Shown: positions 1 through 48,188 of the stretch, one piece after another
How positions within the stretch are numbered: position 1 is the first letter of the stretch
How the letters are laid out: the number at the start of each line of letters is the position of its first letter
Assembly (NCBI RefSeq): GCF_036365525.1
Contig: NW_027141721.1
Span: forward strand, 1 to 64,000
Source: Heterodontus francisci
Taxonomy: Eukaryota
DNA length: 64,000 nucleotides
Direction of reading: 5' to 3'
Position numbers and translations under genes: made by a program
Notes under the pieces: model-generated
The model's input: the letters and a program-made list of their open reading frames with translations, nothing else
Told to the model about the DNA's origin: nothing
Databases searched by the model: none

Positions 1-659
1 TTGTCTCAATTTCTATTCAATTCATTTAACCACTTGTCAGCTGGTTAGCTGAGCTGGTTAAGCTACTTTAACTAGTTGAGATGTCTCCTGTCCATCTTTG
101 ACCCGTTTGCACACTGAGCTTTATTTCTTTTAAGTTGAGCTTCTTCATGATGCACCCTTCTCTCTCTTGTGACATCAAGCAGGCTAATAAAAAGATCTGT
201 GGAAATGATACGCTGTGGTTTTAACTCTGCTTTTCGCACCTTTACACAACATTTCACCAGGCACTGCAGTTCGCCAGCTCGCAGGAGAAAATACAAAACA
301 GATACTGAGCAGAAAACAACATGAGAAACACACAGCAGGAACAGAGTCGAAAGGGGCTCCTGAGGATGGGAGGAAATAACACGGCGGGCACATCAGCATT
401 TTGGAGGAGTTTAGGATGGAGGGTCAATCGGGAATGTTACAAGGGATGCTGGGTGGGTGCCCAGCACAGCTTTTTGTTTGACCGACTGGCTTGCCCAGTC
501 ATTTCAGAGTCAGCCACATTGTTGCAGGAATGGAGTCACCTTTTAGGCCAGGCCGGTTAAAGATGACAGATTTCCTACTCTCAGTGAGAGATGGGTTTTT
601 CAGGCAATCCAGTAGTTTCATGCTCACCATGACTGAGACCAGCTTTTTATCATTTTTTA

Positions 660-1055
660 AATTCGTTCATAGGATGTGGGCGTCGCTGGCCAGGCCAGCA
701 TTTATTGCCCATCTCTAATTGCCCTGAGAAGGTGGTGGTGAGCTGCCTTCTTGAACCACTGCAGTCCATGTGTGGTAGTTACATCCACGAGTGCTGTTAG
801 AAGGGAGTTCCAGGATTTTGACCCAGCGACAGTGAAGGAACGGCGATATAGTTCCAAGTCAGGATGGTGTGTGACTTGGAGGGGAGCTTGCAGGTGGTGG
901 TGTCCCGATGCATCTGCTGCCCTTGTCATTCTAGTTGGTAGAGGTCGCGAGTTTGGAAGGTGCTGTCTAAGGAGACTTTGTGCATTGCTACAGTGCATCT
1001 TGTAGATGGTACACACTGCTGCCACTGTGCATCGGTGGTGGAGGGAGTGAATGTT
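660..1055 (-). mobile_element. LINE 3' fragment (same family as 62920-63470)
   Basis: AAVCTIYKMHCSN..SLLRQHLPN...FTVAGSKSWNSL. Confidence 0.82.
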
Positions 1056-2079
1056 TATCTAACTAAGTGAACGTACATTATCCACCTTGCTGGGATTCGA
1101 ATTCACGTCACCCAAGATATTAGCCCAGGCCTTTAGATTACTAGCCCAGTAATGTAACACTTTGCTACCTTACACTTCAACCTTCTTTGAGCCTCAGCCC
1201 TAGGAGTGGAAAATACAAATGTGGGCGGGTTTCTACGTGTGATTCACTCACTGTTAAACCCTCACACCAGCCTGTTTTTCTTTCTTAAGCTGTTTAAACG
1301 TTTGCAGCTGCACTCTGATAACCGCACATCCTGACTGCGTGTTTCCTGTCTCTGTGTCTCTCTGTATAATTCGATTCTGCTGCTGTGTTGTTCTGACAAA
1401 GTCTTTCCACAAAAAACATGGAAAGAAAGCAGTACAGAGGAATTTGCAGGTAGTTAGGGCGACGAATTGAATTAACAGGGGAGATAGGAGGAGTTGCACT
1501 AGCTGGGTTGATCTTGCAGAGAGCTGGAATTGACTCGATGGGCCAAATGGCCTCGTTCTGTACTGTAACCAGTCTCTGATTCTATGATAGATTCCCTGTG
1601 GTCGGAGAATCTGAAAATATATTTGATCAGTCAATCAAGTGTGAAGGAAATGCAACACCCAACATGTTTACATTGCTGACTCTTTATTCCCTCAGGTATA
1701 GAAGATTAAACGGTGATCTGACTGAGGTGTTTAAAATGACTGAATGTGTTGATAGAATAGATAGAGATAAACTATATCCTGTTGTTGGGGGCGGGGCACG
1801 GGGGCAGAACAAGTTGGTTTAAACCCAAACATCGAGCCAGGCTATTCAGGAGTGATGTCAGGAAGCATTTCTTCACACAAAGGGACGTGGAAATCTGTTT
1901 CCTGTGTGCAGATTAGTGTTTGTAAGGTCAATAAAATTTTGCACGAATGGTGTGGTAGTGATTCCTTTAGAAGAACAACACTTTATCTTTAAGACAAGCA
2001 GTTAAACTATAAATGTATGTGCCAGAGTAGCATTTACCCCCACATCACGGTATTGTTTTTCATTACACCTCTGTTCATT

Positions 2080-2305
2080 NNNNNNNNNNNNNNNNNNNNN
2101 NNNNNNNNNNNNNNNNNNNNNNNNNNNNNNNNNNNNNNNNNNNNNNNNNNNNNNNNNNNNNNNNNNNNNNNNNNNNNNNNNNNNNNNNNNNNNNNNNNNN
2201 NNNNNNNNNNNNNNNNNNNNNNNNNNNNNNNNNNNNNNNNNNNNNNNNNNNNNNNNNNNNNNNNNNNNNNNNNNNNNNNNNNNNNNNNNNNNNNNNNNNN
2301 NNNNN
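2080..2305. other. Assembly gap (N run)
   Basis: Run of N. Confidence 1.
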
Positions 2306-7665: not shown

Positions 7666-7692
7666 TCAGTCAAACCTTTTGCTGTAAGACGT
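7666..7692 (-). CDS. TRBC: TRBC exon 4 coding part (cytoplasmic tail TSYSKRFD*)
   Basis: Pyrimidine tract then ccag|ACG TCT TAC AGC AAA AGG TTT GAC TGA. Phase 0 matches the exon 3 donor. Confidence 0.9.
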   Translation of the reverse strand, partial: TSYSKRFD

Positions 7693-8637
7693 CTGGTATA
7701 TGATAAAAAAAAGAGGGAGTTATTATCGTCATGGAATTATGGACTGATACAGAACAGAAGGAGGCCATTCGTCCCGCGTGCCTATACTGGCATTTTGAAA
7801 GAGCTGTCCAATTAGTCCCATTTCACAGTTCTTTCCCCTATAGCCCTGAGACTATTCCCTCCCCCACTACCTCCACCCCCTCAAACAAGTATTCATCCAA
7901 TTCCCTCTTGAAAGTTACTACTGAATCAGCTTCCACCGCCCTTTCAGCCAGTGCATTCTCAACCACAACAACTCGCTGGCTCAAAATATATTTCTCACCT
8001 GCCCCTCTGCTCCCTTGGCTAATCACCTTACAGCTGTGTCCTTGGTTGGGCAATCCTGCTGCCTCTTTGAAGCTGTTACCCCATTCGCTGTCCTATCCAA
8101 ACCCTTCATCATTGTGCACACCTCTATTAAATCTCTCCTTAACCTTCCCTGATCCAAGGAGAACAATCCCAACTTCCGTATTCTCCTCACATCACTGAGG
8201 TCCCTCAACACTGTTACCGTTCAAGTAAATCGCCCCTTCACCCTCTCCAATGACTCGACATCACTGTCCTGACCAGATCATCATGTGCATGAATAATCGA
8301 GACGAACCATGCACATGCTCTTTCCTGCTCATGCATTCCTAACCTTGCATATAAAGTCTTGTAAAGTTACAATAAGTTCAATTATTTTCCAAGGGAAATT
8401 CCAGAACATTGACAATTGTGTTCAAATGGATTAAATTGGTTGGTTAGTGTTGTGGGCGCAGGAATGAATGGAAAGTGAATTGGTGTATTCCATCTGCGTG
8501 CAATAGGAATGCAAAACTAGGGCTCGTGAATATCGGATAGTCACTCGTAATTTCAGTCTGGAATTCAGGAGAAACTTCTTTACCCAGTTTCACCATGACA
8601 ATACCTATGTTAAGAACTTCAGTAATTTTAATCTTAC

Positions 8638-8744
8638 CTTAGTTTTCCAAGCAATTGTTGAGATGAAAATTGCATAAAAGATGCTTTTGCAGATGAGGAT
8701 CAGGTATGTCAGTTTTGCTGTTGCCATGCTTTGGATTTTCGCCT
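8638..8744 (-). CDS. TRBC: TRBC exon 3 (transmembrane)
   Basis: EAKIQSMATAKLTYLILICKSIFYAIFISTIAWKTK. Has the TRB transmembrane Y-x5-K-S-x2-Y motif with the CD3-contacting Lys. Acceptor ttacag|, donor |gtaaga. Confidence 0.96.
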
Positions 8745-9544
8745 CTGTAAAATAAATGTAACAGGAAATGTTGCAATCTCTGTTCTCTCAAGGCAAGAAA
8801 TGCTACTGCGTGAAAATGTAATGTGTGTCAGTGAAGGAGCCCAATGTAAGGGTCGAGCTGCGAAAGCAGAACTGATCTCCCTTTGACGCAAGGAGCCCTG
8901 GGGTATTCCTTACTACAAATGGAGTTCAGCAATATGGCCGATCTGAATTGGGGCCGCTGTAACTTATGTGTCAGCTATGGCTCACGTATGTATCAGCTCT
9001 AGCTGAGTGGGTAACGCTCTCCTGTCTGAGTCGTACGATTGTGGGTTCATGCCCCAGTCCAAAGACATGAACCCCATAATCCAGACTGACTCTCCCAGTG
9101 CCAGCAGACAGCGTGTGTGCTGCACTGCAACTTTGGAGGAACCTTCTTTGAGATGATGTGTTAAACTAATTTAACCTCTGGGAAGTGGAACTGTCCCTCT
9201 TATCTCCACGCCAGATTCACACTATCAACTCCCAAGGAATTGTAAGTTTTAAGACAGGTGTACACAGCTCCCTCCCCTCCCATCCCCAGGCGTCCCCTCT
9301 CCCTCATCACAGGGCAACATATTTCCCTGAGGTCGTGAACCCAAGAGGACCGTGAGGTTATATCATTCGACTAGGCTGGTCTCGAAATTCCAACGGCCTT
9401 TCCCTCCCAGAGGAGTTTTCTCATAAACTCGTTGTGCATGATAGTATGTATAACTGTAAAACTACAGCTTGGAAATGTTGAAATGAGTATATACATGAAA
9501 TGTCTGACACAGTAATAATTCCAGAATTATTGGTGAATATTTTT

Positions 9545-10090
9545 TGAGTCATGGAGTCATTACAGCACGGAAAGAGGTCATTCGGCCCATCGAGTCCATG
9601 CAGGATCTCTACAGAGCAATCCAATCAGTCCAGCTCTCCCCTTCCATCTCCATTGCCCTGCAAGTTAATTACCCTCAACAGTCCGTCCAGTTTCCTTATG
9701 AAATCATTCATTATCGCCATTTCCACCACCCTCGTAGACAGTGACTTCCAGGTCATTACCACTCGCTGCATAAAACACTTCTGCCTCACATCCCCCCCCA
9801 GTGCATCTTTTTCCCAAAGCCTGAAAACTGTGACCACCCCCCCCCCCCCCCCAGTCCTTATGCCAGCAACTCATGGGGACAACTTTTCTTTGTCTACCTA
9901 TTGTAAACCTGTCATAATCTTGTACAACTCTGTCAAATAGCCCCTCAATCTCCTTTCCTCCAAGGAGAACAACCCAGGTTCTCCAATGTAACTTTGTAGC
10001 TAAAATTCCTCATCTCTGGAACCATTGTGGTAAATCTCCTCTGCACCCTCTCAAGGACCTTCACCTCCTTTACAAAGTGTGGAGACCAGA
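9545..10090 (-). mobile_element. CR1-like LINE 3' fragment in C intron 2
   Basis: WSPHFVKEVKVLERVQRRFTTMVPE on the minus strand. Same family as 11200-11785. Confidence 0.85.
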
Positions 10091-10117
10091 TACAGATAGA
10101 AGCAGATAGATATTCAC

Positions 10118-10138
10118 CTTTACTTATACCGCACATTT
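10118..10138 (-). CDS. TRBC: TRBC exon 2 (connecting peptide, EMCGISK, interchain Cys)
   Basis: 21-nt exon, ttttcccag|AAATGTGCGGTATAAGTAAAG|gtgaat, in frame with exons 1 and 3. Confidence 0.95.
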
Positions 10139-10458
10139 CTGGGAAAAGAAAGAAAAATCAATAAACATTCAGCATCAGAATATTTTATGAAATCACTGTG
10201 TAAATGTAGATTATCACAATTGAGTCCCGCACTGTACTCTAATATATTGAGAGTCATTTTAATTGAGTGTTTAACCATATCTTCCCCTTTGCACTACAAT
10301 ATTGTTCTATTTCATGAATTATTTAATTATTTATTGACTTACTGATACATCTACTTGCTTATTCGTACTTTCATAAGAGCACAGGTACTATATAAATGCA
10401 ACTTTCTGATTTCTTTGAAGCTGAAATAAAATGGTATTGGTCTCACTAGTGTGCTTAC

Positions 10459-10809
10459 CTGCTTTGACAGCTAATGTTGAACTGCTTGTTGTAGGCACTG
10501 ATTCGTTAGTGTAGAGATCTACTCTGCACTCAACGTTCTTGGACCGAGCCCAATCTAGGGCGTCGAATCTCAGCCGGCTGCTGATGCTGTAAGATGTGTT
10601 TTCTTTTGATAGGATGGCATTGAGATCAGTGTGAATGTTCGTGTCATTGGCATCTTTCTCCTTGCCATCGACAAGCCAGTGGATCTTGATGTTGTCGGGG
10701 TAGAAGTCGCTTACGAGGCAGACCACAGTGGCTTTTTTCTTTTCTCTAATCTCTTCGGGAGAGGGCTCAAAGACAGTAACTTTGGCAGGCCTAATCGTAT
10801 CGTTTTCGC
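10459..10809 (-). CDS. TRBC: TCR beta constant region exon 1 (Ig C1 domain)
   Basis: Translates (G)ENDTIRPAKVTVFEPSPEEIREKKKATVVCLVSDFYPDNIKIHWLVDG...YSISSRLRF...W...VECRVDLY...AVKA. Contains the TRBC motifs VFEPS..EI...KAT.VCL..FYPD and SSRLR. Acceptor cctgcag| and donor |gtaagc, phase 1. Confidence 0.98.
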
Positions 10810-14210: not shown

Positions 14211-15227
14211 CACCATGCTACAACCCTACACTAAAACTAACAAGAGTGTCTCTCCCCTCCAGATGGATGGAGTTGGTGCTGGGGATTTTACATCGAAATT
14301 CATTGAAATCGCAACAATCTAACCAAAGTTCTATATAAGTTTCATGTAACTTCTGTGCTTTGGAATGCTAGCTAATCCCCTGCAAAGGAAGCCCTGTGCT
14401 TTGCTTGCTGTTATTATTGGATATTAGTCAATATTAAAGATGCAGACAAGTACTATGTCGCACTGCATCAGGGGATACCAATTAGAATTAAGCCTTCAGG
14501 TTGCTCAATCTTCTGCGAACACCCAGAGCTTCTTGCTGCTTCACCATAACCCTACATTTGTTCGCCTTCAAGTATGCATCAAATGCATTGTTTGAGCTAT
14601 TTTCAGGCAGTGCATTCCACATCACAACAATTGGCTGTGTAAAAGCAAATACTCATCTCCCTCTTTGTTTCTTTTGCCAATCACAAATCTGTTCTCTTTG
14701 CTTACCGACTCTTCTCCCAGCAGAAATGAGTTATTCTTATTTACTCTATTACAAACCATATGATTTTGGACATTTTGAATATGATATTAATTCTCACCTT
14801 AACCTTCTCTTCTCTAAGGAGAACAACCCCAGTTTCTCCAGTATCTCCACACAATTGAAGTCATTCATCCCTGGTACCACACTGGCAAATCTTCTTTAAC
14901 CTTCTCTGCTCCAAGGAGAACAATATTCAGCTTTTCCAGTCTCTCTACAAAGCTGAAATCCTTTCTCCCTGGTATCAATCCTCCCACCACCACTTAATCT
15001 TCTCTGCTTTATCCTACTTGTTTTCAGAATACATCTTGCTGAAATATTGCGAAATAAATATAATAATTATTACGATAATTTGGTAATAAGTGGGGCAACG
15101 AGGGAAATCTGGGTAGCAGGGTCAGACATACAGCACTGTGCAGTTACGTACTGGAGTGCAATGCCATGGGTAAATATGCAACTAACTTAATTGACGCACT
15201 CAAAACGTTACATTTTTTAAAACTTAC

Positions 15228-15279
15228 CCAACACTGTTAATTTGGAACCGGGGCCAAAATGAAAGTTAGTAGTTACATC
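15228..15279 (-). CDS. TRBJ: J segment DVTTNFHFGPGSKLTVL
   Basis: FGXG motif. RSS cacaatg-12-cagaaaact (15280-15307). Donor gtaagt. Confidence 0.93.
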
Positions 15280-15915
15280 CACAATGCTACATTCCTATCA
15301 GAAAACTAGGATTGCCTAACAGTTCCCGTAGACTGCCAATGCAGTAGCTTGTTCCCTATATTTATTTAGTATGCCAAGAAAGCAAGTAGTGAAATTGTTA
15401 AACTGTTTGGACATTGCCAAGTACCTCTCACTTTGAATTCTGATTTGAAATAGTGTTTCAGCATAAATGTAAGTCAATTCCTTATGCACTCAATTTAGTT
15501 ATTTTCTTGAAGGAAGACTAGGTGAGTTTGCCATTTAGTATCTAATCTTCTACAACCTTGACTAGATCTAGTCTTTGTTTATTACATTCAATCATTTTTG
15601 TTGGGTCAGTGTGTTAAAGGTTATGGAACCAAAGACGGTAGCTGGAGCTAAGATAAAACTCAGCCATGATTTAAGTGAATGGTGTAAGAGGCTCAAGGGA
15701 TGAATGGTCCTTTGTGGCTTCTTGTGTTTGATTGGAGTCCTTTCAAAATCGTTGAGTCGGGTTTGCATCTGTTATAAACTCGACAGTGGCCCTTCCTGAG
15801 TTCAGCCTTTAAGATAATCACTACTAGTTGAGCCTTGCCTCTCTGCTTTTACATTGGTGAAGATTAATGCTTTTACATTGACCACTGGGGGGACACATCG
15901 CTCGGTTTTACATAC

Positions 15916-15971
15916 CCAGAACTGTTAATCTTGTCCCATCGCCAAAGCGGAGAGGTGTGCTGTTTCCAGCA
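15916..15971 (-). CDS. TRBJ: J segment AGNSTPLRFGDGTRLTVL
   Basis: FGXG motif. Heptamer cacagtg 15972-15978; best nonamer attaaaact follows an 11-nt spacer. Donor gtatgt. Confidence 0.93.
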
Positions 15972-16527
15972 CACAGTGTTACAAGCAGTATTAAAACTGC
16001 TGGGGACCAATGATTACACGATACTTCATCGAATGCTCTGACACCTTTGAACAATTATAATTCAACCAATTGCAATGTGTAGATTTGTCTGTCCTTTTCT
16101 CCACCATTCCATTTTAAAGCAGAGAAATTATGGTAAAATTTGCTTAGACGTTCTTGGAGCTCTGTGCACAGTTCTGGTCTCCATATCCCTCGGTTAGACC
16201 ACACTTGGATCACTGTGCACAGTTCTCGTCTTCATACATATTTACCTATCAGGAAAGACTGAATAGCCTTTATGATAGATAAGAGAAGGCTTAGAGGTGA
16301 CCTGAAAGAGGCGTCTAAGATTATGAAAGGGTTGGGGGGTTCCAGAGGGTAGACACAGAGAAGTCTGGTAACGTTGTCTTTGCAAAATTGTGCATCTTGG
16401 GATACAAATTTACTCAAGTTTTCCAGTATGTGGCCAGGTTTGTGAGTTTTGGCAGAATTACGAAGCAATGAATGAACACTTAGAGGGAATTAAATTTGAA
16501 TATTGAGATCTATTCTTGTTCACCTAC

Positions 16528-16576
16528 CTAGAACGTAATCCCAGAGCCAAAGTAAGAGATCGAGGTCCCAGCTGCA
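16528..16576 (-). pseudogene. TRBJ: J pseudogene (AAGTSISYFGSG then frameshift/stop)
   Basis: About 7 nt missing after FGSG, so that frame hits TAG. RSS cacaata-12-tgtaaaact and donor gtaggt are retained. Confidence 0.85.
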
Positions 16577-16609
16577 CACAATATCACAGGCCAGTTGTAA
16601 AACTACCAG

Positions 16610-17155
16610 GGCCCTCAGTTACGCCTGAGCTGGAGTCTCGTGCCCAATTCAGGGCACCACACTTTTGGAAGGATGTCAAGGTCTTGGAGAGCGTGCAGAG
16701 AGAGATTTACTGGAATGGTCCTAGAAATGAGGGACTCAGTTATGTGGACAGACTGGAGAAGGTGGGATTGTTCTCCCAGAGAAGGTGAAGGAGAGATTTA
16801 ATAGTTGATTTCAAAGCCACGAAGGGCTTTGTTAGAGTCAGTAGGGGGAGACTGATTCCACAGGCCGGAGATTTCACAACCAGAGAACATAGATTTAAGG
16901 CAATTGGCAAAAGATCCAGATGTTTATTGAGGGGCCATTTCTTTACACAACGACTTGTTATGATATGGAATGCATTACCTGAAAATGTGATAGATACTGA
17001 TTGCATATTGAACTTCAAAAAAGAATTGGAGCATAGTTCAAAAAGGCGAAAATTGCAGGGCTGTATAGAAAGAAAAGGGGTGAGGGAGGCGAATTGGAGA
17101 ACATTTCCCAACAGCCGACTCGAGTAAGATGGGCCGAGTGGTATTCTTGTGTCCA
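16610..17155 (+). mobile_element. CR1-like LINE 3' fragment
   Basis: APHFWKDVKVLESVQR and FFTQRLVMIWNALP. Confidence 0.8.
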
Positions 17156-17754
17156 ACATGCATACTTGTCGAATTATTTCCATCAACTGTTTTTTTTAGA
17201 AGTCTGTCCCATTATCAACAGTGAGCATTCATTCCAGAAGATCACTGTTTCAGGACGTTAATCATAACAAGCTGAACAAACTCTGTTTCAGAATGGGATT
17301 GAATTTTATACGGATGAAGGCAAAGCACAATCTTCTAAAACAAAATCGAAGCGGTCATTTTTATTAATTAGTGTGAGGTTAACAATTTTATGCGGCAACA
17401 GCTCAGAATTGTTGACTTAATTTTGGCTGCAAGCCCATAAAGTATGGATTGACAAAAGTATTAGGGTCATGTCTTTCCAGCCATGTCTATCCTGGATTCT
17501 ACTCCACCCAATAACCCTCCTGAGAAAAGAGCCTGAGGAATGTCTCCCAATTCCAAAACAATTCAGCCAATCACAAGAAGGCATTTCCAACATAACATTC
17601 TACGTTGGACAACCCAATGCACTTCTCTGTCGGTTTAATGTCACACAGCATTTTCTATATTTTTGAAAGGATAATAAGATTGTCGATGTGCTGGTTGATA
17701 ATTCGAAAACTGGACACTAATGGGAAACTACAGAATATGATGATAGACTATCCC

Positions 17755-18275
17755 TTCTTCTTTCTTTTCTTTCTTTTGGGCCTACTTATCTCGAGAGACA
17801 ATGGATACGCGCCTGGAGGTGGTCAGTGGTTTGTCAAGCAGCGCCTGGAGTGGCTATAAAGGCCAATTCTGGAGTGACAGGCTCTTCCACAGGTGCTGCA
17901 GAGAAATTTGTTTGTCGGGGCTGTTGCACAGTTGTCTGTCCCCTTGCGCCTCTGTCTTTTTTCCTGCCAACTACTAAGTCTCTTCGACTCGCCACAATTT
18001 AGCCCTGTCTTTATGGCTGCCCGCCAGCTCTGGCGAACGCTGGCAACTGACTCCCACGACTTGTGATCAATGTCACACGATTTCATGTCGCGTTTGCAGA
18101 CGTCTTTATAGCGGAGACATGGACAGCCAGTGGGTCTGATACCAGTGGCGAGCTCGCTGTACAATGTGTCTTTGGGGATCCTGCCATCTTCCATGCGGCT
18201 CACATGGCCAAGCCATCTCAAGCGCCGCTGACTCAATAGTGTGTATAAGCTGGGAGTGTTGGCCGCTTCAAGGAC
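17755..18275 (-). mobile_element. RTE-like LINE 3' end inserted in J cluster
   Basis: QRRLRWLGHVSRMEDGRIPKDTLYSEL...CSTCGRACHSRIGLYSH C-terminal motif followed by an (AAG)n-like tail. Confidence 0.88.
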
Positions 18276-18310
18276 TAGTTAGACAAACAAAGTCTTTAAC
18301 ATTTACATAC

Positions 18311-18366
18311 CCAAAACTGTGAGCTTGGTCCCTTGGCCAAAATATAATGGTTCGGTCTTTCCATAA
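18311..18366 (-). CDS. TRBJ: J segment YGKTEPLYFGQGTKLTVL
   Basis: FGXG motif. RSS cacagtg-12-tacaaaact (18367-18394). Donor gtatgt. Confidence 0.95.
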
Positions 18367-19036
18367 CACAGTGTTACACTCCCATTACAAAACTATTACC
18401 CTCCAGACAACCTATTGCACCAGGAGGCGGCCATTCAGCCCCTCTATCCTGCTCCTCTATTCAAAGGCTGATCTGTACCTCACTTCATTTACCATTCTGA
18501 TCTCGATATCCCTCGATAACCTCCCCAAACAAAGTTATTTCCATCTCAATTTTGTCAGGTCTAATCGCCCTCCAGGATTCACAGCTTTTTGTTGAAGAGG
18601 GAGTTCCAGAGATCTTTTACAATCAATTATTATCATGTACTTTTACTACGGATTCCTCTGCGAGAGGTGAAATCAGAGGGTTTTCCATCAAAATATCTGA
18701 TGTTCGACATCCCAGTACGGCGTTAGTTTCACATAAAAAGCTACAATGAGATTCTTGATATTCCCATTGATAACTAGAATACTGGAGAGTTGTGGGCAAT
18801 CACAGAATATAACAATAGACCAACAAATGGCTTTATCAAGTTTGACTATCCCAGTGGATAGTGAATGGAACAATTTAACAATAGTGTTACTCTAAAAGAG
18901 AAGCAAATTAATCTCTTTTAAAGGCAGGCTGGAGATTGGGTCAAATCATGAACTAAACCCTCTCCACTCCCCATTGCAGGCAACATAATAGCAATTAAAC
19001 TGTAAAATGAATACAATGGTGTAACCGTTCACCTAC

Positions 19037-19089
19037 CGAAAACTACTATCTTGGTCCCATCGCCAAAAGTATAATCGTAGTTATTTGAG
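19037..19089 (-). CDS. TRBJ: J segment SNNYDYTFGDGTKIVVF
   Basis: FGXG motif. RSS cacagtg-12-tttaaaact (19090-19117). Donor gtaggt. Confidence 0.95.
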
Positions 19090-19560
19090 CACAGTGATGC
19101 CTGTCAGTTTTAAAACTCCCATCTAGTTAGAAATGCTAAAATGCACCGTCTTCGAAATGATGTACTCAAATTGTAGATTTACATACTATTAATGTGTGAT
19201 GTAAAGACAGCGGCAATGCACCCGAGATATTGGACAGGAGAACAAAAGGTTAGTTATAGGGCCTGGTGGAGGTTACAGAGACAGCGAGATTTGTCGGGAT
19301 TGGAGGATGTTACAGGGATAAGGAGAGTTATAGAGGCTGGAGGCGGTTACAGGGATAGGGAGACAGCGAGGCCTTGGGGTGAGTTGAAAACAAAGGTGAA
19401 AGATGTTTAAACCAAGATATTGCAGGTTCTGCTGCCAATATAAATCGGCGAGGTGATCCTGTGACCGAGAACATGATGTATTTTAGAGCATCTAATTTCG
19501 TCTGAGAATCTCAAGGATCCTCATTGACGAAAACAACAAAAGCTTCAGTTCTGTGCTCAC

Positions 19561-19613
19561 CTAAAACAATCAATTTTGTCCCGTCACCGAAGTAATACAG
19601 AGTATTTCCTGTA
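19561..19613 (-). CDS. TRBJ: J segment TGNTLYYFGDGTKLIVL
   Basis: FGXG motif. RSS cacaatg-12-agtataact (19614-19641). Donor gtgagc. Confidence 0.95.
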
Positions 19614-20669
19614 CACAATGTTACATGACAATAGTATAACTACAGGTCGAAGAGCAATGAAGCTGGTGCACTGATGCAAAACTTCACACACAATGCACTG
19701 GCGATTTGACTCTTTATGTCAAGGGCATTATAATGTTAATTAGAAAATCATTGTGAGGAATAGAAAGGGAAGTTCGTTACTCAGATAGTGGTAATAATGT
19801 GGAATGCACTACCACAGGGAATGGGTTGAGGTGAATTGTGGAGATGCTTTCAAGGAGTGAGTTGGAAAAAGACATGGGAGAGAAAGGAATAGAAGATTGG
19901 ATGAAGTAAGGGTGAGAGGAGGCTCGTGTGCAGTTTCACCACTGGTTTGCTTACACACTGTAAATTCTATATAATTAAATGTAATTATGATGTTTTATTT
20001 CACTCATTCTGGGGGAAGAACGATGACAGCATTTTTTGGAAACAAATAATCTGCCCTCTGAGAAAACGGTTAATAAATCTGCTACTGCCTCCCTGACAGG
20101 ACTGCGGAAAGACCTACACCCCATTGAGTGCAGGGGCGATGGTTGCAAAGTGATAATGTTACTGTGCTAGTAATGTTCTGGTTCAAATCCCGAGGGTAGC
20201 TAGAGGAATTAAACTTCAACTGATAAATGAAAGTCTGGTTTAACTGCATGAAACTATCGTCAATTGTCAGAAAATCCCGCCTGTTGTCAGAGAAGTGACT
20301 TCAGACTTCAGTTGACTCGCAACTGCCTTCTGAAACATCAAACCACCCAGTCCAAGAGCAATTAGGGTTGGCCAACAAATCTTGGCCTTGCCAGCGACGC
20401 CCATATCTGATGAAAAAAAATGAGCTCGCAAACCACTCAGAGGGCAATTAGGGATGGGCAATAAATTCTGGTCCACATGCCACGAACGAATTAAAAAAAT
20501 GTCTTTCCCTGTGCATCTTAGTATTTTCCATGTATTCTGGCTTTTATGCACATTGGAAATGCTGCCTGAAATTTTTTTGTTACTTGTCAATGCAACATTT
20601 CAGTTGCAAACTGAAACTCAGAAACAGCGTGAGCTGCAATCATTGTTTTTCAAAGAACGTCCAACTCAC

Positions 20670-20722
20670 CCAACACAGTCAGTTTTGTCCCGTCACCAAA
20701 GAAATAGTCGTAGCTTCCAGAA
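20670..20722 (-). CDS. TRBJ: J segment SGSYDYFFGDGTKLTVL
   Basis: FGXG motif. RSS cacagtg-12-tactaaact (20723-20750). Donor gtgagt. Confidence 0.95.
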
Positions 20723-21024
20723 CACAGTGTTTCAGCCCTGTTACTAAACTAGACTGGTCCCTGAAAAGTTGCCGAATATTTGAGTGAATAATACAGCTCT
20801 TGTTTGTTTGTCCATAGTAAGCTAAATGGGAGAAATTTTCCCTTCTTTAAACACATATCCAGTTCAAGAATCAGTCTTTCTCCTTCTCTCTCTCTCTGTC
20901 TCTGTTTGTATCTTAAATGCATTGGAAAAATGTCTTTCACCAATGAACCCGGAGCCTTAAACATCTTTCCGACCATTTCAGACAACATGCATTCTCAGAA
21001 TTGGCCTAACATTCCTGGACTCAC

Positions 21025-21074
21025 CTGTCACAACTAACTTGGTACCGCTTCCGAAGTAATATTGATTGCCAGAA
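21025..21074 (-). CDS. TRBJ: J segment SGNQYYFGSGTKLVVT
   Basis: FGXG motif. RSS cacagtg-12-aacaaaacc (21075-21102). Donor gtgagt. Confidence 0.96.
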
Positions 21075-22121
21075 CACAGTGAGAGACCCTTGTAACAAAA
21101 CCTCACAAGGCGAGGTGCAGGTCTTGTCTATATCACACTTGGACCCTGTCCTCGAAAGCGTTTGTAGATCACATCTCCTTAGTTTATATATCTCCTAATT
21201 TACATTTGTGGCTCACGAGCAAGGTCATAGAATCAGAAATATCCATCACTGAAGGGGAGACCATTCGGCCCATAGGACCTCTGCTGGCTTTATGAAAGGT
21301 TTTACCATCGTCCTGTATATTTCCCTTCGAGTATCTATCAATTTCCATTTTGAAAGTTTCTACTGAACCAACTTCCACCACCAGTTCAGATATGCCTTCC
21401 CGATCCAGTAACTACCTCTGTGGGAGAATGTCTCTTCATCCCGCCACTGGTCCTTTATGTCAATTGCCTCAAAACCTGTGTCCTCTGGTTACCGACCCAT
21501 CTACCAATGGAGACTGTTTCTGATTATTAATTCTATCCAAAACCTTCACTAATTTGAACACCTCTATTCAATCTCCATTTAACCTTTTCTGTTCTCCAGT
21601 CTCTCCAACTATCTGAGGTCCCTCATCTCTGGTACAATTCTGGTGAATCATTTCTGCTCCCAATCTAAGGCCTCGACAACCGTCATAAAGTGTGGTACCC
21701 AGGACTGAACACAATACTCCAGCTGGGACCTTACCAGTGATTTGTAAATGTTAATCCTCACTTCCTCACTCAACACCTCGTGAATTCTTAACCAATAATG
21801 GTGCGTTCCAGCATCATCAACTGGTCACTTCAAACATCTTGACCCTTTTTTTGACCAAGCTCACTCTCTATCTCACTCCTCGTATTAAACCAATAGAGTA
21901 ACATTCGGGACAGGGGTAGGCCATTCAGAGTCTGATTTCCCAGACAGCTATCACTTGTTGATTTCCACACACACAATCGGTCACAGTGAAGAAACGGATG
22001 GCAGCTGAATAGGGAATTTGATTAGCGTTATCTTCATATATTAATCTTGTAAATTTCAATCAGACTATACCATATCAGACCGTGCGGAATGATTCTCACT
22101 GACGCCACGTTAATCAGTTAC

Positions 22122-22173
22122 CTAAAACCACGAGGTTTGTGCCATCGCCAAATGTGTAGTCATTGTTCCCTGA
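22122..22173 (-). CDS. TRBJ: J segment SGNNDYTFGDGTNLVVL
   Basis: FGXG motif. RSS cacaatg-12-aacaaagct (22174-22201). Donor gtaact. Confidence 0.94.
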
Positions 22174-22606
22174 CACAATGTTACACAGTTGTAACAAAGC
22201 TAGGGAATCTTTAACTCTCTACACGCCGGTTAATTAAGCGCAGTTGCATCGTTTTGTATTGGGTTGCATTTGTTACCCCGCCCTTTCCCTCTTTACCTCT
22301 TTTTGTTATTTCTTTTGTCTTTGTCTCGACCTCTCCCATCTTTGTCTCTCTAATTTTCCGTCCCCTTTTCCCTGCATTTTGCTCCCAATCTGTCTCTCTG
22401 TAGATAAGGTTTGCCTCCCTAACCTTCCTCCATTTCCACCTCGCCATTGCCCTATGTTTAGTTGTTTTAACTGTTGCTTCGTTACTCTTTGTTTTTTTCT
22501 AAAGTTTATGGTCTCTCCCCTTTCTTCAAACTGACGGGGACAAACTGGCCGACAGTTTTAATAATTGCTGAGACCACTGATATGTTTCAACAAATATCTC
22601 ACTCAC

Positions 22607-22664
22607 CCAGGACTGTTAACTTAGTGCCGTCTCCAAAATATGATAGCTGGGTATTTCCTGCACC
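22607..22664 (-). CDS. TRBJ: J segment GAGNTQLSYFGDGTKLTVL
   Basis: FGXG motif. RSS cacatca-12-acaaaaaca (22665-22692). Donor gtgagt. Confidence 0.95.
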
Positions 22665-23214
22665 CACATCATCATGTGACAACACAAAAACATTCCTCAA
22701 TAGCGCCCTGCCAGTTTTCAGTGTCCATCTCATTAATATTTGATATTGCCCTTTGACTAACATGAGCTGACCATACAACAAAGTACACGCATAAAATAAC
22801 CGGGTGGGGAGGTGGGGGAGAGGGGGCTTGACCATTAAAGCTAGCAACATTCACAGTGCCGTCTATCTATCCATCTGTGAATATGTTAGATGTCCACAGA
22901 TACAGTGCTTATAATACTGGAAGATTTTACATGGAGTTGTTCATAATTATTAATTAACTTCTACACACAAGTTGGGGACCAGATAGCTCAGTTGTCTAAC
23001 GTGCCAGTTAGAAAAATGCTTACAGAACGGGTTCATTTCTCACCGTGTCTGGGGAAGGCAAGGGGAAGCCTCCTCATAGACACTGCTCCAGATTCATGCT
23101 CCTCTCTCCTGCTGGAGAAAAGGAGCAGAGAGCCAGTACATCAGATGACCACCAGCCTGCACAGACAAGATGAACCCAGCATCCCTGGCTTCATTGAATG
23201 AAGGTCTAACTCAC

Positions 23215-23271
23215 CCAATACTGTTAGAGCCGAACGTTCTCCAAAATGTAAAGGCTGGTAGCTCCCGCCTG
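23215..23271 (-). CDS. TRBJ: J segment GGSYQPLHFGERSALTVL (non-canonical FGER)
   Basis: Open frame. RSS cactata-12-accaaaaca (23272-23299). Donor gtgagt. Confidence 0.88.
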
Positions 23272-23426
23272 CACTATACTAAACAACATTACCAAAACAC
23301 ACCTTTGGATAGACCGATACACCGACAGAAAAGTAGCTACGTAGATCGATAAACATAAAGATGGATACACAGACCGATACATTGTGGATGATGGAACAAT
23401 AGATGTTTATATCGACGGTAACGTAC

Positions 23427-23476
23427 CTAAAACAGTTAACTTGGTACCAGCTCCGAAGTAGTAAATATCAGAAGAG
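23427..23476 (-). CDS. TRBJ: J segment SSDIYYFGAGTKLTVL
   Basis: FGXG motif. RSS cacaaag-12-atcaaaacc (23477-23504). Donor gtacgt. Confidence 0.95.
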
Positions 23477-25012
23477 CACAAAGCTAAATCCCTGCATCAA
23501 AACCTCTCACCTCTCTCTGATTCTTGTCCTGAAGGAGCCTTTCACAACTAGAAAGAACCTACAGGAGTATTGGCACAAAGGAACATAGAAATACTGTAGC
23601 TGGAGTAGGCCATTCAGCCCGTCGAGCTTGTTCTGACATTCAGTGAGGTCATGAATCATCTGTATTGTAACCCCATTAGCCTGTTTGTGTTCCAGACCCT
23701 TTTCCTAACAAGGCTCTATCATTCTCAGATTGGGAAGTGACAATTGACCCTGTGGCCTCAGCAGTTTCATAGGGGAGAGAGGCCCAGATTTCCACCACCG
23801 TTTGTTCAGTTATGTCCTTTCTGGCATCACCCCTGAACGGCCAAGCTTTGAGGTTAAGCTAATGCTCCCCTCCACCCTCACCCTTGTTCTGGGCTCTGAC
23901 ACCCGTGTAAATTGCAGCTCTATCTACCCTATCGAATCCTCTCATTATCTTAAACACATCAGTTGGATCAATCCTTAATCTCCAATGCTCAACATCTCGA
24001 AGCAACCTGCCCCCATAATTTAATCCCGGCATCATTCTGGTAAATGAGGAAAGATCATTCGCAATCTGCCCTGGACTTTCCGCTCACGTTCCCCAGGCCG
24101 TTCAATGTGCATTCAACACCCAGTGTCCATTCACAAACAAAAAAATCCCCTTTGATACTTCTCATCCATTCAAACGCTTTAGGATAATGGGGAATACATC
24201 AAATCATATCGAGGATTCAGCAGCGAACCAGACCATTCAGCCCACTACGTCCTAGCCGATTAAATGCTCCACATGATCCTTCTCACACCCTCTTCATCTC
24301 ACCCCATCCTTTTAAAAGGTCCTTTTATTCCTTTCTCCCCCATATGTTTATCCAGCTTCCCTCTTAAATACATCTCTGCTATTCGCCTCAGCCCACTCCC
24401 TGTGGTAGTGAGTTCCACATTCTCGCCACTCTCTGGTTGAAAAGGCTTCTCCTGAATTCCATATTTGATTTATTAGTGACTGTCTTATATTGATGGTCCC
24501 CTGGTTCTGGTCTCCTCAACAAGTGGAATCATCTTGCCTCTGTCATAATCATAAAGACCTCGATCAGGTTATCCCCTCTGCCTTCTCTTTTCTGGAGAAA
24601 ACAGCACCAGCCTCTTCATTCTTGACCTGTGGTTATATCCTCTCAATTTTGGGAGCACACTTGTAAATATGTTTTGTTTTGCTCTATCCAGAGCCTCTGC
24701 TTTTTTAATCATATGCAGTTCATAACGGCATACTGAAGAATTGAATCTGACAGTTTTCGTTCTGTGTCTGTGTCCTCTTGTTTTGTTCTCATTTGCAGCT
24801 GCATTGCTGTTTGTACTGTTTATTTTAGAGACCCTCCCTTATGTCCCCACTCAAACCCCTTTCCAAATGAATTCAGCAGTTGTAGGTCTCCCTTTGTAAG
24901 CCCAAGAGTCGAAATTAATTCACCGAATTGCTAAATATTCACTCCCACAACCACCCCACGTGAATTCCCGAATTGAATCAACTTTTCCAGTGTTTGGAAG
25001 GCATTCACTCAC

Positions 25013-25026
25013 CTAAAACCACCAGT
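25013..25026 (-). pseudogene. TRBJ: J fragment (3' end LVVL plus splice donor only)
   Basis: Identical to the 3' end and intron of the J at 33287. The remainder was lost by deletion. Confidence 0.85.
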
Positions 25027-25088
25027 AAGCTTGGAATGCACACAGCTTGACATGAAGGTAGAGAGAACAAAATACCCCTTTATCTTAC

Positions 25089-25139
25089 CTAACACCGTCA
25101 GTTTGGTGCCGGTCCCGAAATTGAGTGGTGTGCTGGTAG
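25089..25139 (-). CDS. TRBJ: J segment TSTPLNFGTGTKLTVL (first J after D2)
   Basis: FGXG motif. Weak RSS cacatca-12-gcacgaacc (25140-25167). Donor gtaaga. Confidence 0.92.
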
Positions 25140-25644
25140 CACATCAGCAAATCATGTTGCACGAACCCAGTAGTGACCTGCTCAGCTTTTAGGAAGCACT
25201 GGTCAAGACAATCAGGACGCACAAAGCAGCTTACAGCCAATGAAGCAGTTTGTTTAGGAAGTGGTCACCACAGGGAGACAGAGCAACTGATATTGGACCA
25301 AGGAAGTCCCATCAAACAGCAGTGAGATTAATGAGTAGATCATTGTGATGTTGGTTGAGGGATCAATATTGGTCCCCGGACACCGGGGTGGTGTTTCAGG
25401 GGTTGAAGAGTAACCAGTTTTCACACAAATAACACACAGTTATTCTCTTTTCCAGAGGAATGCTCGACGTTATAAAGCTGGACCATTCTGAGGCATCTAC
25501 AAGATTGAAAGTGCCCAGCTCCCGCCATAATCCAGAGGAGATGTTTATTCGTTTACTCTGTTGCCACTGCTCTTCTGCTAATCTTCCTCGAGGTATGCAG
25601 AGCGAGGTTTTTGTACGAAGGCTGCATTGGATTCTATCACAGTG

Positions 25645-25657
25645 TCCCCCCTGTCCC
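25645..25657 (-). other. TRBD: D segment D2: GGGACAGGGGGGA
   Basis: 5' 12-RSS (plus cacggtg-12-acaaaaaag, 25658-25685) and 3' 23-RSS (minus CACTGTG-23-ACAAAAACC, 25644-25606). Near-identical to mammalian TRBD1 GGGACAGGGGGC. Confidence 0.97.
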
Positions 25658-27281
25658 CACGGTGATAGACACTCATACAAAAAAGAACGCGAATTTTGCA
25701 AGGTCCTGCCTCTCAAAAGACTCCCGAGGGCTTCACTTGGTGAAGTCAGTTTAGATTGAGCTGCTGAAAGTTTTTTAGTCCTTTGGACCATAATTAAAGG
25801 CCGTTCATTCCGTCTCAAAACTGTTAGCAGGAACAGGAGGTGGCCATTCCGCCCCTTCTCAGCCTGCGACACAGGTGCAGCAAGAGGCCATTCAGCCCCT
25901 CTAGACCTTGTTACACAGGAAGAAGAGGAGGCCCATTCAGCCCCTCTTGAGCTGCTTACACAGTAACAGGCCCATTCTTCCACTCAAGCCTCCTTCCTTT
26001 CCTCTACTTCCTTCCTTCCTTCCTTCCCTTCCGTCCTTCCGTCCTTCCTCCCTTCCTTCCTTTCATGCTTTTTTTTCTTGCTTGCTTTCTCTCTTGCTTT
26101 CTCTCTCTCCATTCCATCTCTCTGTTGCACCCCTTCTCCCCTTCCCCCTCCCCCATCCCTTACCGGCTTCATGATCCGCATTCTCTCTTCGACAACGTGC
26201 AGGACCTCAGGACATACCGGCCACGGGACCTCAAACAGAAGCCACTTACTCTAGACAGTAAATCGTTCACACTGCTATCTCTTATCTTATCACTCAGAGA
26301 GACCCATATCTGCCAAACTAGTGCAAGTTTCCCAGGTGTCGTGTTGATGTGCGTGGTGCTGTTATCACTCCTGCAGATCACTTTGCACACCAACACCCAT
26401 CGCCATGCACCTGACATCAGGGAGAAAGGAATAGAAGTTTAGATGGTGTAGTGGGGGGGAGAGGAGGCTCGTGTTCAGTATCACCACTGGCTTGATGACA
26501 CATTTCTGGGGGGATTCGAGCAATGTTTGAAAATGAATAAACCGCCCTCTGAGAAAATGGGTCAAAAAAGGAACTCCTTCCTGAACAGCACTGTGGAAAT
26601 ACCTAAACCACATTGAACGCAGGCGTGAGGCTAGCAAAATGATAATGTTGCTGGGCTAGTAATCCAGCAGCCCGGGCTAGTGTTCTGGTTGTGTGAATTC
26701 AAATGGCCGCAGATGGGATTTAAATTCAGCTGATTCATAAAAATCTGTCAGGGTGCCATGAAACTGTCGTCGATTGTCATAAAAACCCATCTACCATCTT
26801 ATATGGGACTCCAAACCTGCAGCATGCAGTTGACTGTTAACTGCCCTCTGAAATTGCAAAGCACTCAGTTCAAGGGCAATTAGGGATGGGCAACAAATGT
26901 TGGCCTTTCCATCGGTGCCCACATCCCATGACAAGAATAAAAACATGGCCTAACAAACCACTCAGAAGGCAATTATGGGTGGGCAATAAATGCATCCCAG
27001 CACGAATTAACAATGACTTTTCCTGTTCATTTTTGTCTGTATTTTGCTCCGCATCTGTGTCTCTCTGTATATGGTTGCCTCCCTAGCCTTCCTCCACTCT
27101 CCACCTCGCCTTTCCTCTATGTTTAATTGTTTTAACCTTTGCTTCTTTACTGTAATGCTTACGGTTTATTTTTACAAATTTCATGTTCTCTCCCCTTTCT
27201 TCAAACGGAAGGGAGCAAACTGCCCAACAGTTTCAGTGCTGATTGAGCCCACTGATATATTTCGACCAATATTCTACTCAC

Positions 27282-27339
27282 CCAGGACCGTTAACTTCGT
27301 GGCATCTCCAAAATATGATGGATGGTTACTTCCTGCTCC
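27282..27339 (-). pseudogene. TRBJ: J segment GAGSNHPSYFGDATKLTVL, RSS nonamer deleted
   Basis: FGDA instead of FGXG. Heptamer cacatca is present but the ACAAAAAC seen in paralogs 22607 and 31058 is missing. Confidence 0.85.
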
Positions 27340-27860
27340 CACATCACCATGTCACAACATTCCTCAATAGCGTCCTGCTTATTTGCATTGTCCCTATCAT
27401 TAATATTCGATATGGGCCTTTGAGTGACATAGGCCAAAGTAAACTCATAAACTAACCAGGGTGTTTGGCAATTAAAACTAGCAACATTCCCAATACTGGC
27501 TCTCCATCAATGTATGGACCAGTTAGTCAGATGTCCACAGAAACAGCTCTGACAATATTGGAAAATTTTACTTGGAGTTCGTCATAATTATTAAGTAAGT
27601 TGTGCATGTAGGATGGGGACCTATTAGTTCAGTTAGCTAGATGGTTCACGTGTGATTCAGAGCAAGGTCAACAGCAGGGGTTCAGTTATCGTCTTGTTCT
27701 GACGAAAGTAACGGGAAACCGCCTTACCTACCTTTTTCCCTTGTCATTCTCATATCTCCTGCTGGCGAAAAGGAGCAGAGAGCCATGGACGGAACATTTG
27801 CATGGCACAGGCAATATGAACCCAGCCATCCTGGCTTAATCGAATAAACATCTAACTCAC

Positions 27861-27917
27861 CCAAAACTGTTCGAGTCCAACCTTCCCAAAAATGCAGAGG
27901 CTGGGTGTTCCCGCCTA
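27861..27917 (-). CDS. TRBJ: J segment GGNTQPLHFWEGWTRTVL (non-canonical FWEG, probably non-functional)
   Basis: Open frame. RSS cactata-12-atcaaaaca. Donor gtgagt. Paralog of 23215 and 31460. Confidence 0.82.
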
Positions 27918-28076
27918 CACTATACTAAACAACAGTATCAAAACACAGCGTTGGGTAGACAGGTACAGTCTCAAACAAGTAATGTATCTATATCTAAACA
28001 CATAGATGGATGCACAGATACATTGTGGATCGATCGAACAATGGATATTTGCACATTTATGTCGATGGGATATTAC

Positions 28077-28118
28077 CTAAAACTTAGATCCAGTTCCGAA
28101 GTATTAATATCAGCAGAG
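28077..28118 (-). pseudogene. TRBJ: J pseudogene (SADI..YFGTGSK..)
   Basis: Paralog of 23427 and 31728 with small deletions, a frameshift and a broken heptamer (caaaag). Confidence 0.85.
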
Positions 28119-28669
28119 CAAAAGCTAAATCCCTGAATAAAACCTCTCACCTCTCTATGGTTCTATCCCAAGAGAGCCTTTCACAACAATGGAGAACATA
28201 CAAGTACAGGAATATTGGCTGACAGCAGCACGAGAGCATAAACTGACCGTTCAGCCCTTCGAGTGGGATCCGACATGCAAAAAGATCATGTATCTTCGTA
28301 TCGTCAAGGTGGATGGAAAGAAAGGTGCAGAGCTGAGTGGTTAAGTGCACAGCTCTCAATTGTGGATTGATGGAAATCGGACAGTCCAGAATTTCAGGAT
28401 CAGAAAGATCTCGGAGAGTTGTAGAGGCTGGAGGAGGTAACAGAGATAGGGAGGGTTGCAGGGGGCTGGAAGAGGTTACAGACATAGGGAGGGTTGTAGG
28501 TGGCTGGAGGAGGTTGAGGCCATTTTTTAAAACTCCTTCATGGGATGTGGATATCGCTGACAAGGCCAGCATTTGTTACCCATCCCTAGTTGCCCTTGAC
28601 AACTGAGTGTCTATTTTAGAAAGCAGTTAAGAGTAAAGCAAAATAGTTAATAGGTAGAATGAGGTAGAA

Positions 28670-29260
28670 GTCGTGTTTCAGTTATACAGAGCCTTGGTTA
28701 CACCACATCTGGAGTTCCTCTGAGCATTTATGGGCACCAGACATTAGGAAGGATATGTTGGTCTTGGGGGAAGTGTAGTGGACTTTAAAAAGACTGATAC
28801 TTGGACGCCAAGGGTTAAATTGCAAGGAAATATTACACATTTCATATTCTTTGGAAATGAGAAGGTTAAAGGGTGGTTTGATCAAAGTTTTCAAGATATT
28901 AAGGGGAATACATGATGTAGATAGAGAGAAACGATCTCCATTGGTTGGGCAGTCTAGATCTGCGGGGCAGAGTTTAAGAATTAGAGCCAGAACTTTTCAG
29001 GCGTGAAATTAGAAAACATCTTTTCACATAAAGGATGGTAGAAGTTTGGAACTCTCTTCTGCTGGAAAAAATCGTCAATTTTAAGTCTCAAATTGATAGA
29101 TTTTTGTTAACCACAGCTATTGAGGGATGATGGGGCAATGGGGGTGGATGGAGTTAGGTCACAGATCAGTCATGATCGTATTGATTGGCAGAGCAGACTC
29201 GAGGGGCCGAATGGCCTACTCCTGCTCCTGTGTACCGATGATCTTATGTTCCTGTAACTT
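28670..29260 (+). mobile_element. CR1-like LINE 3' fragment
   Basis: Degenerate LYRALV.PHLE, RRLKGGLIKVFKIL and ggccgaatggcctactcctgctcc tail. Confidence 0.75.
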
Positions 29261-30264
29261 CTATTTCAACATAGAGTCAGCATTCTGCTCCAGCTAGAAT
29301 GTCCCAAATTCTGACAACTCAGAGTGAAAAGGAATCTAGTAATTGTCCTTGTCGATCTTTTGTCAATGATTTTAAATATCTGACCTTTGTTTATTGACCC
29401 ACCCACCAGAGGAAATAATTTCCCCTTCAAATATTTGTCCAGTCGCCCTTTGAAAGTTACTATTGAGTCTGTTTGCACCACCCTTTCAGGCAGCGCATTC
29501 CAGATAACAACACACCGCATAATTGTTTTATTCTTCATATCACCCCTGTTTATTTTGTCAATTACCTCAACTCTGTGTCCTTTGTTTACCAACGCTTCGA
29601 GCATTGGAAATTGTTTCTGAGCATGTACTGTGTCCAAAACCTTCATTGCTTTGGACACCTCTGTCAAATCCCCCCTAAACTTTCTCTGCTCTAGTCTCTA
29701 GACGCAACTGAAGACCCTCATCGCTGGAACCAGTCGAATAAATCATTCGTGCAACCACTCTAAGGCCTTGACATCCATCCTAACATGTGACACCCACAAT
29801 TCTCCAGCTGGGACCAAACCAGCGATTCATCGAGGTTCAGCTTAACTCCCTTGCTCAACTCCTCGTCAATCCTTCATCAACGAAGGTGATTTCCAGCTTC
29901 CTCAACTCTTCATTCTAAATCTCTTGATCGTCACGTATTTGTCCCTGTACCTCACTCCTATCATCAACTCGTATTACGCCAATTTAGCCACATTAGGGAC
30001 TGGATTAGACCATTCAACCTCTGATATCCAAGGTACTCATCACATGTCGATTTCCACATGCACAATACGTCTCTCGTTCATTTCAGGAAATATTCCATAT
30101 GGGGCTCGGAAGTAATGCATGGAGTCTGAACACGAATACAAGGTGTATGTTTATATATAAGGTCCTCAGATCCACAACTAGGTTTGAATAATTTTAAATT
30201 TCAACCAGACATCCCTCTGATTCCACTTTCCTTTAAAGAGCTAATTCGATTCTATCTCACTTAC

Positions 30265-30316
30265 CTGAAACCATGAGTTTTAAACTGCCCCCAAAAGTAT
30301 AACCATCGTTGCCTGA
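30265..30316 (-). pseudogene. TRBJ: J segment SGNDGYTFGGSLKLMVS with defective heptamer
   Basis: Open frame but FGGS. Heptamer ctcaatg lacks the invariant CAC. Paralog of 22122. Confidence 0.82.
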
Positions 30317-31057: not shown

Positions 31058-31115
31058 CCAGGACAGTTAATTTAGTGCCATCTCCAAAATACATAGGTTG
31101 AATACCCCCTGCTCC
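31058..31115 (-). CDS. TRBJ: J segment GAGGIQPMYFGDGTKLTVL
   Basis: FGXG motif. RSS cacatca-12-acaaaaaca (31116-31143). Donor gtaagt. Confidence 0.95.
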
Positions 31116-48100: not shown

Positions 48101-48188
48101 CCCTACTTGAATTTTCCTCTCTAACAGCTCACAGTATAAGAGGGTGGTATGTTTTTGACCCAGCCCTGCACCTGTTTGAATCACTGTG

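Follow-up and report, generated by a model that had tools for sequence, protein, structure and literature searches.

Does DNA that lies behind the constant (C) gene of a shark locus for T-cell receptor beta (TRB), and that recurs within the V array of the same locus, announce the next receptor cassette, or does it belong to the C gene itself? The question was raised by an earlier note on 64,000 nucleotides of Heterodontus francisci (contig NW_027141721.1, positions 1 to 64,000, forward strand; hereafter the window). Reviews describe the TCR genes of cartilaginous fish as translocons, as in mammals (PMC6795676).

Gene content and order of the TRB locus

The window holds a Heterodontus TRB locus encoded on the minus strand (Table 1). 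It contains V segments with 23-RSS, D segments with 12- and 23-RSS, J segments with the FGxG motif and a four-exon C gene. In the direction of transcription, two family B V genes are followed by a copy of the block found behind C, a 38-bp tandem array and an orphan family A leader; two V genes of family A are next, then two D segments with J segments after each, and one four-exon C ending at 7666.

The frame of TRBC is open throughout, AG/GT borders are present at the exons, and an AATAAA lies at 6891. Its product matches the Pfam family C1-set (E 2e-19). C exon 1 is 99-100% identical to six H. francisci proteins, P0004 to P0009 (14 hits from 262 candidates), and 54-62% identical to other sharks; TRBC as a whole differs from each of the six at 1-2 of 167 residues. 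The T-cell receptor cDNA protein P0004 (AAA61563.1) agrees fully with the C domain over a 116-aa query and with C exon 1 over 117 residues, and its V is family A V2; one residue of the transmembrane exon differs. Family A V1 matches P0005 at 103/103 residues. C residues 107 and 149 vary, and all four combinations occur among the window and the six proteins; such mixing suggests conversion or recombination between C copies.

Seventeen FGxG J motif hits were found in the window, one of them with stops. The D-J region 22354-35145 is duplicated (79-85% identity) without a second C, whereas the mammalian repeats are D-J-C. Long tandem arrays flank the first D segment (34973-35943 and 37396-38047), and one of them reaches the second N gap (35944-36190). 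The CRE-like decamer core of family A V2 is at 44799-44806. The promoter of the orphan leader is without CRE-like and CCAAT motifs, and the next leader is encountered before any V exon; the frame and donor site of the orphan are intact, and it may be spliced to the V exon at 48490. A 2.8-kb duplication accommodates the family B V genes; it lies upstream of the block, and no C intervenes.

Table 1 Features of the window (positions 1 to 64,000; strand "." where no strand applies)
Feature	Position	Strand	Details
Low-copy flank	1..243	.	CRE-like 170-177, RUNX 214, E-box 38; family A promoter and leader absent
Possible unexpanded seed of the 38-bp tandem array	244..342	.	Aligns with 51212-51319 in register with the block; weak
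Block copy 3' of C	343..1811	.	Three aligned segments and one private repeat insertion
High-copy repeat, 3' copy only	659..1056	.	86% like 63074-63472
Enhancer-like core, 3' copy	1305..1347	-	E-box 1305, GATA 1316, RUNX 1321, ETS (CAGGATGT) 1326, second ETS 1342
Repeat tail in both copies	1488..1590	.	96/103 identical between copies
LINE fragment (presumed)	1697..1894	+	Right homology edge falls inside; V-array copy cut at 52694 by another repeat
Assembly gap, 226 N	2080..2305	.	Separates block from C; no piece spans it
TRBC, four exons	7666..10809	-	Exons 10809-10459, 10138-10118, 8744-8638, 7692-7666
Two D-J groups	15200..34830	-	D at 34817-34829 and 25645-25657, 12- and 23-RSS
Family A V2	43992..44692	-	Leader 44692-44647, V exon 44332-44031, 23-RSS
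Family A V1	48150..49350	-	Leader 49350-49305, V exon 48490-48189, 23-RSS
Orphan family A leader	50132..50408	-	Leader 50177-50132, promoter decayed, no V exon
38-bp tandem array, 18.5 copies	50662..51338	.	Junction of block and family A unit
Block copy in V array	51340..52694	.	Aligned to the 3' copy
Exact CAGGATGTGGT	51639..51649	+	Sole one in the window; inside the insertion private to the V-array copy
Enhancer-like core, V-array copy	52189..52231	-	Same motifs and spacing; RUNX site TGTGGT
Two family B V	56390..61650	-	Leaders 57042, 61650; exons 56727-56429, 61330-61032; 23-RSS

The block behind C is duplicated in the V array

The earlier note had proposed a direct-orientation duplication, and self-blastn of the window recovered it as three collinear matches whose edges agree with the proposal to within about 40 bp. 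Positions 343-455 match 51340-51452 (81.6%, E 6e-24), 457-655 match 51733-51943 (74.1%, E 3e-34) and 1054-1811 match 51949-52694 (84.5%, E about 0). With substitutions alone counted, identity is 902/1042 aligned bases (86.6%) overall and 652/732 in the main segment; the identity of individual segments ranges from 79% to 95%, a spread beyond chance (chi-square p 0.002). The two copies are 51 kb apart, and their divergence of 13% is about that of other local duplications (identities of 84.8% for D-J, 88.2% for family A V and 84.7% for the family A promoter).

The copies were also said to share non-repeat sequence and repeat junctions, and indeed low-copy DNA is interleaved with repeat pieces common to both (about 1054-1160, 1488-1590 and 1697-1811). 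About 40% of 343-1811 is repeat-derived. A 280-bp insertion (51453-51732) is found only in the V-array copy. We take the tail at 1488-1590 to be a LINE-like 3' end and the fragment at 1697-1894 to be a CR1-like LINE; the repeat family names (CR1, SINE, LINE tail) are tentative assignments. To the right of the repeat at 52695 the homology does not resume: comparison of 1812-7600 with 52695-64000 gave five short hits, none collinear with the block.

The block had been placed just 5' of a family A leader. It does end 1163 bp 5' of an ATG (50177), but this ATG belongs to the orphan leader. The paired open reading frames reported in the two copies exist only as stop-to-stop frames, reading LTDQ... 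and ...VVGESENIFDQ. A coding role was rejected after three of them were scanned and no Pfam family was found at E 0.1; among five block or flank frames searched, none matched Pfam up to the cut-off. An Rfam scan of 1-2079 gave 0 matches at E 1, and a structured RNA reading was dropped.

Depth of the block in public sequencing runs

Contigs of four public runs were placed on 1-2079 at 80% likeness. X1 is a DNA run, X5 comes from the same sample and is RNA by our guess, and X8 and X11 represent two other species. Contig depth, which is no copy number, was 40-66 over 1-490 and 73-101 over 1191-1470 in X1, and 1e4 to 5.7e6 in the repeat parts. The repeat at 659-1056 reached a summed contig depth of about 1e6 in three DNA-type runs. 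The unique parts of the block match only once elsewhere in the window. A high-copy dispersed repeat, the outcome that the earlier note had named beforehand as fatal to its proposal, does not fit unique parts at depth 40-100 against repeats at 1e4-1e6. Low X1 depth outside the repeats thus makes the block a patchwork in which low-copy DNA alternates with repeat fragments common to both copies.

Three single contigs (2-439, 441-690 and 1124-1503; depth 40, 46 and 48), with three other letters each, represent the 3'-type copy in X1, and V-type contigs add about 52-68 over the core in several variants. The 3'-type contigs thus share the homogeneity of the C exons, and the V-type contigs the variability of the V-D-J part. 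Within the high-copy repeat, contig depths were 3.8, 9.0, 9.7 and 10.2, and a fifth contig (1182) is collapsed; if a depth of about 10 is a single copy, there is a hint, depth being no copy number, of about five copies of each block type.

X5 contains a third, V-array-like variant of the block. Among its 17 differences outside an indel-rich stretch, taken from the 40 of 282 differences that are listed, 10 match the V-array copy of the window and 7 are new. The V-array-like variant is covered (equivalent to 51949-52694) without a splice. V-type contigs have a depth of 51-82 in this run and 3'-type contigs of 3-6; if X5 is RNA, the V-type copy would be transcribed far more than the 3' copy. The other species gave scattered, short cover in 8/13 (X8) and 5/13 (X11) low-copy bins. 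In the core region X8 gives low-depth cover to part of 1261-1400, X11 none to 1261-1330; other low-copy bins are similar.

An enhancer-like core in both copies

The earlier note saw the duplication and missed an enhancer-like core within it. In both copies E-box, GATA, RUNX and ETS motifs lie inside 28 bp (1305-1332 and 52189-52216), with a second ETS motif 10 bp on. The copies agree at 28 of 29 motif positions, the single change keeping the RUNX consensus TGYGGT, and CAGGATGT is kept in both. With the two copies removed, the tightest span of the four classes elsewhere in the window is 122 bp. A 28-bp span arose in 0/400 order 1 and 3/400 order 2 shuffled windows, counts that are optimistic since the four classes were picked from TCR-enhancer knowledge after the core had been seen. 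The core is not conserved in excess of its unique flanks (mismatches 8/79 vs 30/223, p 0.56), and repeat-derived parts of the block are equally or more alike (89.6-95%). The 3' core lies 6.3 kb behind the C stop at 7666, counted across the 226-N gap.

The mammalian TCR-beta enhancer, E-beta, has GATA and E-box sites. It lies downstream of C-beta2 and requires RUNX1 and ETS1 (PMC7696796), and PMC2787013 gives CAGGATGT as an ETS1 specificity element and CAGGATGTGGT as the ETS/RUNX site of the human enhancer. The shark block resembles E-beta in being a few kb downstream of the last C and in its clustered RUNX and ETS sites, including the ETS1 element (PMC7696796, PMC2787013). Unlike E-beta, the core holds no composite ETS/RUNX site with CAGGATGTGGT spacing: its RUNX site is 2 bp off the CAGGATGTGGT composite, the one spacing found enriched in PMC2787013, and it has one ETS/RUNX pair against two composites per E-beta. 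Nor is it a single copy per locus; E-beta is described as unique, and the shark block has a second copy in the V array. The block is in these respects a candidate for E-beta that falls short of membership, and from its motifs the shared core is likely to be a TCR-beta enhancer behind C. The unique DNA at 3800-4400, between C and the gap, contains scattered RUNX, ETS-like and E-box motifs without a tight cluster and is an alternative enhancer candidate.

Several probable V-D-J-C cassettes in one shark

RefSeq holds five gene models of H. francisci with this C, spread over four records (1.11, 1.57, 1.67 and 1.99 Mb), two of the models sharing the 1.99-Mb record as judged from equal record length. 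The models are automatic and have non-physiological exon joins, and so serve here as samples of genomic DNA; some records may be uncollapsed haplotypes. P0005 matches the window almost exactly, and no other C was found on its record of 1.11 Mb. Three of the five models start with a family A leader and V; in P0008 and P0009 the V is 83-88% like that of the window. P0008 is collinear with the window through V-D-J at 68-93% amino-acid identity in 7 of 8 segments, one gapped segment reaching 56%, and P0009 at 71-100% in 9 segments, three weaker hits of 45-57% being left out. In C exon 1 both are 99% identical to the window, with one or two residues of C different. The J region of P0006 resembles that of P0009, and the front of P0007 matches a repeat only.

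These models make it likely that this shark repeats the whole receptor unit several times. Of the clustered organisation put forward in the earlier note, the repeated V-D-J-C units are thus indicated by the five C models, and the likeness to Ig miniclusters is loose. With no fewer than 4 V, 2 D and 17 J-motif hits, the unit is more like a repeated small translocon than an Ig minicluster. Shark Ig miniclusters are likewise repeated units with their own C (PMC6795676, PMC1845163), but each consists of a single V, two or three D and a single J, in up to about 100 copies; the one V and one J of the minicluster are not what the window holds (4 V exons, 17 J-motif hits), and the TRB unit, present about five times, combines several V with two D and 17 or more J motifs. 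In Heptranchias, too, two C genes of 98.8% identity lie on one record, with V sequence ahead of each. Blot work of the 1990s reportedly suggested several TCR-beta C genes in the horn shark, and the present result may therefore confirm an older report.

The left flank and the assembly gap

The narrower proposal, of a family A V or cluster beginning immediately beyond the left edge, finds no backing in positions 1-342, which are low-copy (X1 depth about 40) and contain neither promoter, leader nor flanking repeat of family A. Remnants of such a leader or promoter in this stretch were rejected, as 146, 79 and 75 of 200 shuffles reach the scores of the three units. Likeness to the family B promoter was not accepted either; it rests on one 10-mer among six targets, and 6 and 9 of 200 shuffles reach the score. 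The likeness of 244-342 to the tandem unit is reached by 16 of 200 shuffles. An X5 contig, depth about 109, extends over approximately 1-110 and past the left end, near a CRE-like motif (170-177), the neighbouring 3'-type depth being 0-6; it could mark a transcribed unit left of the window, possibly a V of another family. One X1 contig extends 344 letters past the left end. Positions 1961-2079 have no cover in X1 and X5.

Origin of the block

In our judgement the chances are even that the block began as an enhancer-like element behind C, gave rise to a copy ahead of the proximal V genes of family A, and was amplified with its cassette into about five V-D-J-C units. An old local duplication, of about the same time as the other 85-88% duplications, would have placed the second copy immediately before these V genes. 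Copying would have run from behind C into the V array, through duplication of a cassette with loss of the upstream D-J-C or through a direct segmental copy. An origin on the 3' side of C fits the lack of a family A unit in 1-342, the finding of P0005 as the sole C of its record, the homogeneity of the 3'-type contigs and the variation of the V-type contigs. Binding of RUNX and ETS factors at the core would make the D-J region accessible to recombination. Later, the unit with both copies would have been amplified into about five cassettes, every one with both copies; that each unit carries a C-linked and a V-linked copy is suggested by the C-linked contigs, which are single and near-identical, and by the V-type contigs, which come in several variants. 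A bolder form, in which each of about five cassettes is framed by a pair of active paralogous enhancers, located behind C and just ahead of the proximal V genes of family A, seems to us unlikely. If true, the upstream copy would be a V-activating element of each cassette's own, and the first shark TCR-beta enhancer would have been located.

The earlier note took the block for the 5' flank of family A units, so that the copy behind C would head the next tandem cassette; unequal crossing over between the LINE fragments near 1811-1890 and 52694 would be the route. The direct orientation and the position of the right homology edge within a LINE fragment agree with this, as do the two C models on one record, the linked C genes and V sequences of Heptranchias and the X5 contig (RNA by guess) that leaves the left end. 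Diverged cassettes (type II) exist as well, and they differ from the window about as much as the two blocks differ from each other, which fits this account in addition to the preferred one. Positions 1-342 speak against it, with no trace of the family A promoter, leader and flanking repeat, as does P0005, the model closest to the window, with no other C found on 1.11 Mb; and the about equal X1 depths (48 vs 52-68) are a misfit for one type I and four type II cassettes with a single block each. We consider this account rather improbable. The block could also be a neutral 1.4-kb segmental duplicate with a chance cluster of motifs, the real enhancer being elsewhere (e.g. 3800-4400 or 1-243). The core is not conserved above its flanks, its ETS/RUNX spacing is non-canonical, the cross-species cover in X8 and X11 is only scattered and short, and many other duplications in the window are of similar age. 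Yet four motif classes within 28 bp (0 and 3 of 400 shuffles, the next span being 122 bp), the expected position behind C and the lack of any disruptive change at 29 motif positions make a neutral duplicate improbable in our view. Far less credible is an artefact, either a dispersed repeat or a contig misplaced left of the gap. It could draw on the large repeat-derived share of the block, on the bare stretch at 1961-2079 and on the unspanned gap; the unique parts, however, have a depth of 40-100 against 1e4-1e6 for repeats in the same run, the 13% divergence and private insertions mean that the block is no assembly duplicate, and a misplaced contig would hardly be expected to be paralogous to DNA of this very locus 50 kb away.

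Comparison with other loci and other sharks

Repeated TCR units are known from TRG, in which V-J-C cassettes with a 3' enhancer each are described for mouse, ruminants, carnivores and salmon (PMC7349638, PMC7696796). The shark units are alike in being repeated and in having a 3' enhancer of their own, here a candidate; they differ in being TRB units with D, in having two D-J groups and one C per unit, and in the extra enhancer-like copy 5' of the proximal V. Several complete V-D-J-C units per genome also make up the TRB of salmonids and pike (PMC10464911); those units are head-to-head and their C subgroups are about 70% identical, whereas the C copies of Heterodontus differ at 0-2 residues. 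Repeated TCR units with their own 3' enhancers being already known from other loci and other fish, the surprise is limited.

About five near-identical TCR-beta cassettes in the horn shark would be an exception to the translocon description, and with about ten C alleles they would raise the question of allelic exclusion. A copy retained inside the V array would be an arrangement not described for mammalian TRB, and the 45-bp candidate core offers a target for testing RUNX/ETS control of TCR-beta back to the base of the jawed vertebrates. A literature search largely confined to open-access main texts found no shark TRB genomic locus and no shark TCR-beta enhancer, and the available parts of PMC11754216, PMC5931798, PMC1845163, PMC11405840, PMC11372145 and PMC2192082 contain nothing on shark TRB genomic structure; supplements of genome papers may annotate these loci.

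Scyliorhinus torazame and Mustelus asterias have two TRBC each, 59-61% identical and on different chromosome-scale records, and Pristiophorus has two TRBC at 71% (proteins of the three species: P0001/P0003 with P0019/P0021, P0002/P0010, P0011/P0013). Such pairs suggest that some sharks have two unlinked TRB loci, the tree support for two lineages being weak. Family A V, searched at 56-179 aa, returned one bamboo-shark protein among 3 candidates and no V-only model of Heterodontus. In Chiloscyllium punctatum (P0017, P0018) a family A-like V of 64% identity stands on the TRBC record, three locus tags away from that gene, and family A may be old as the C-proximal V.
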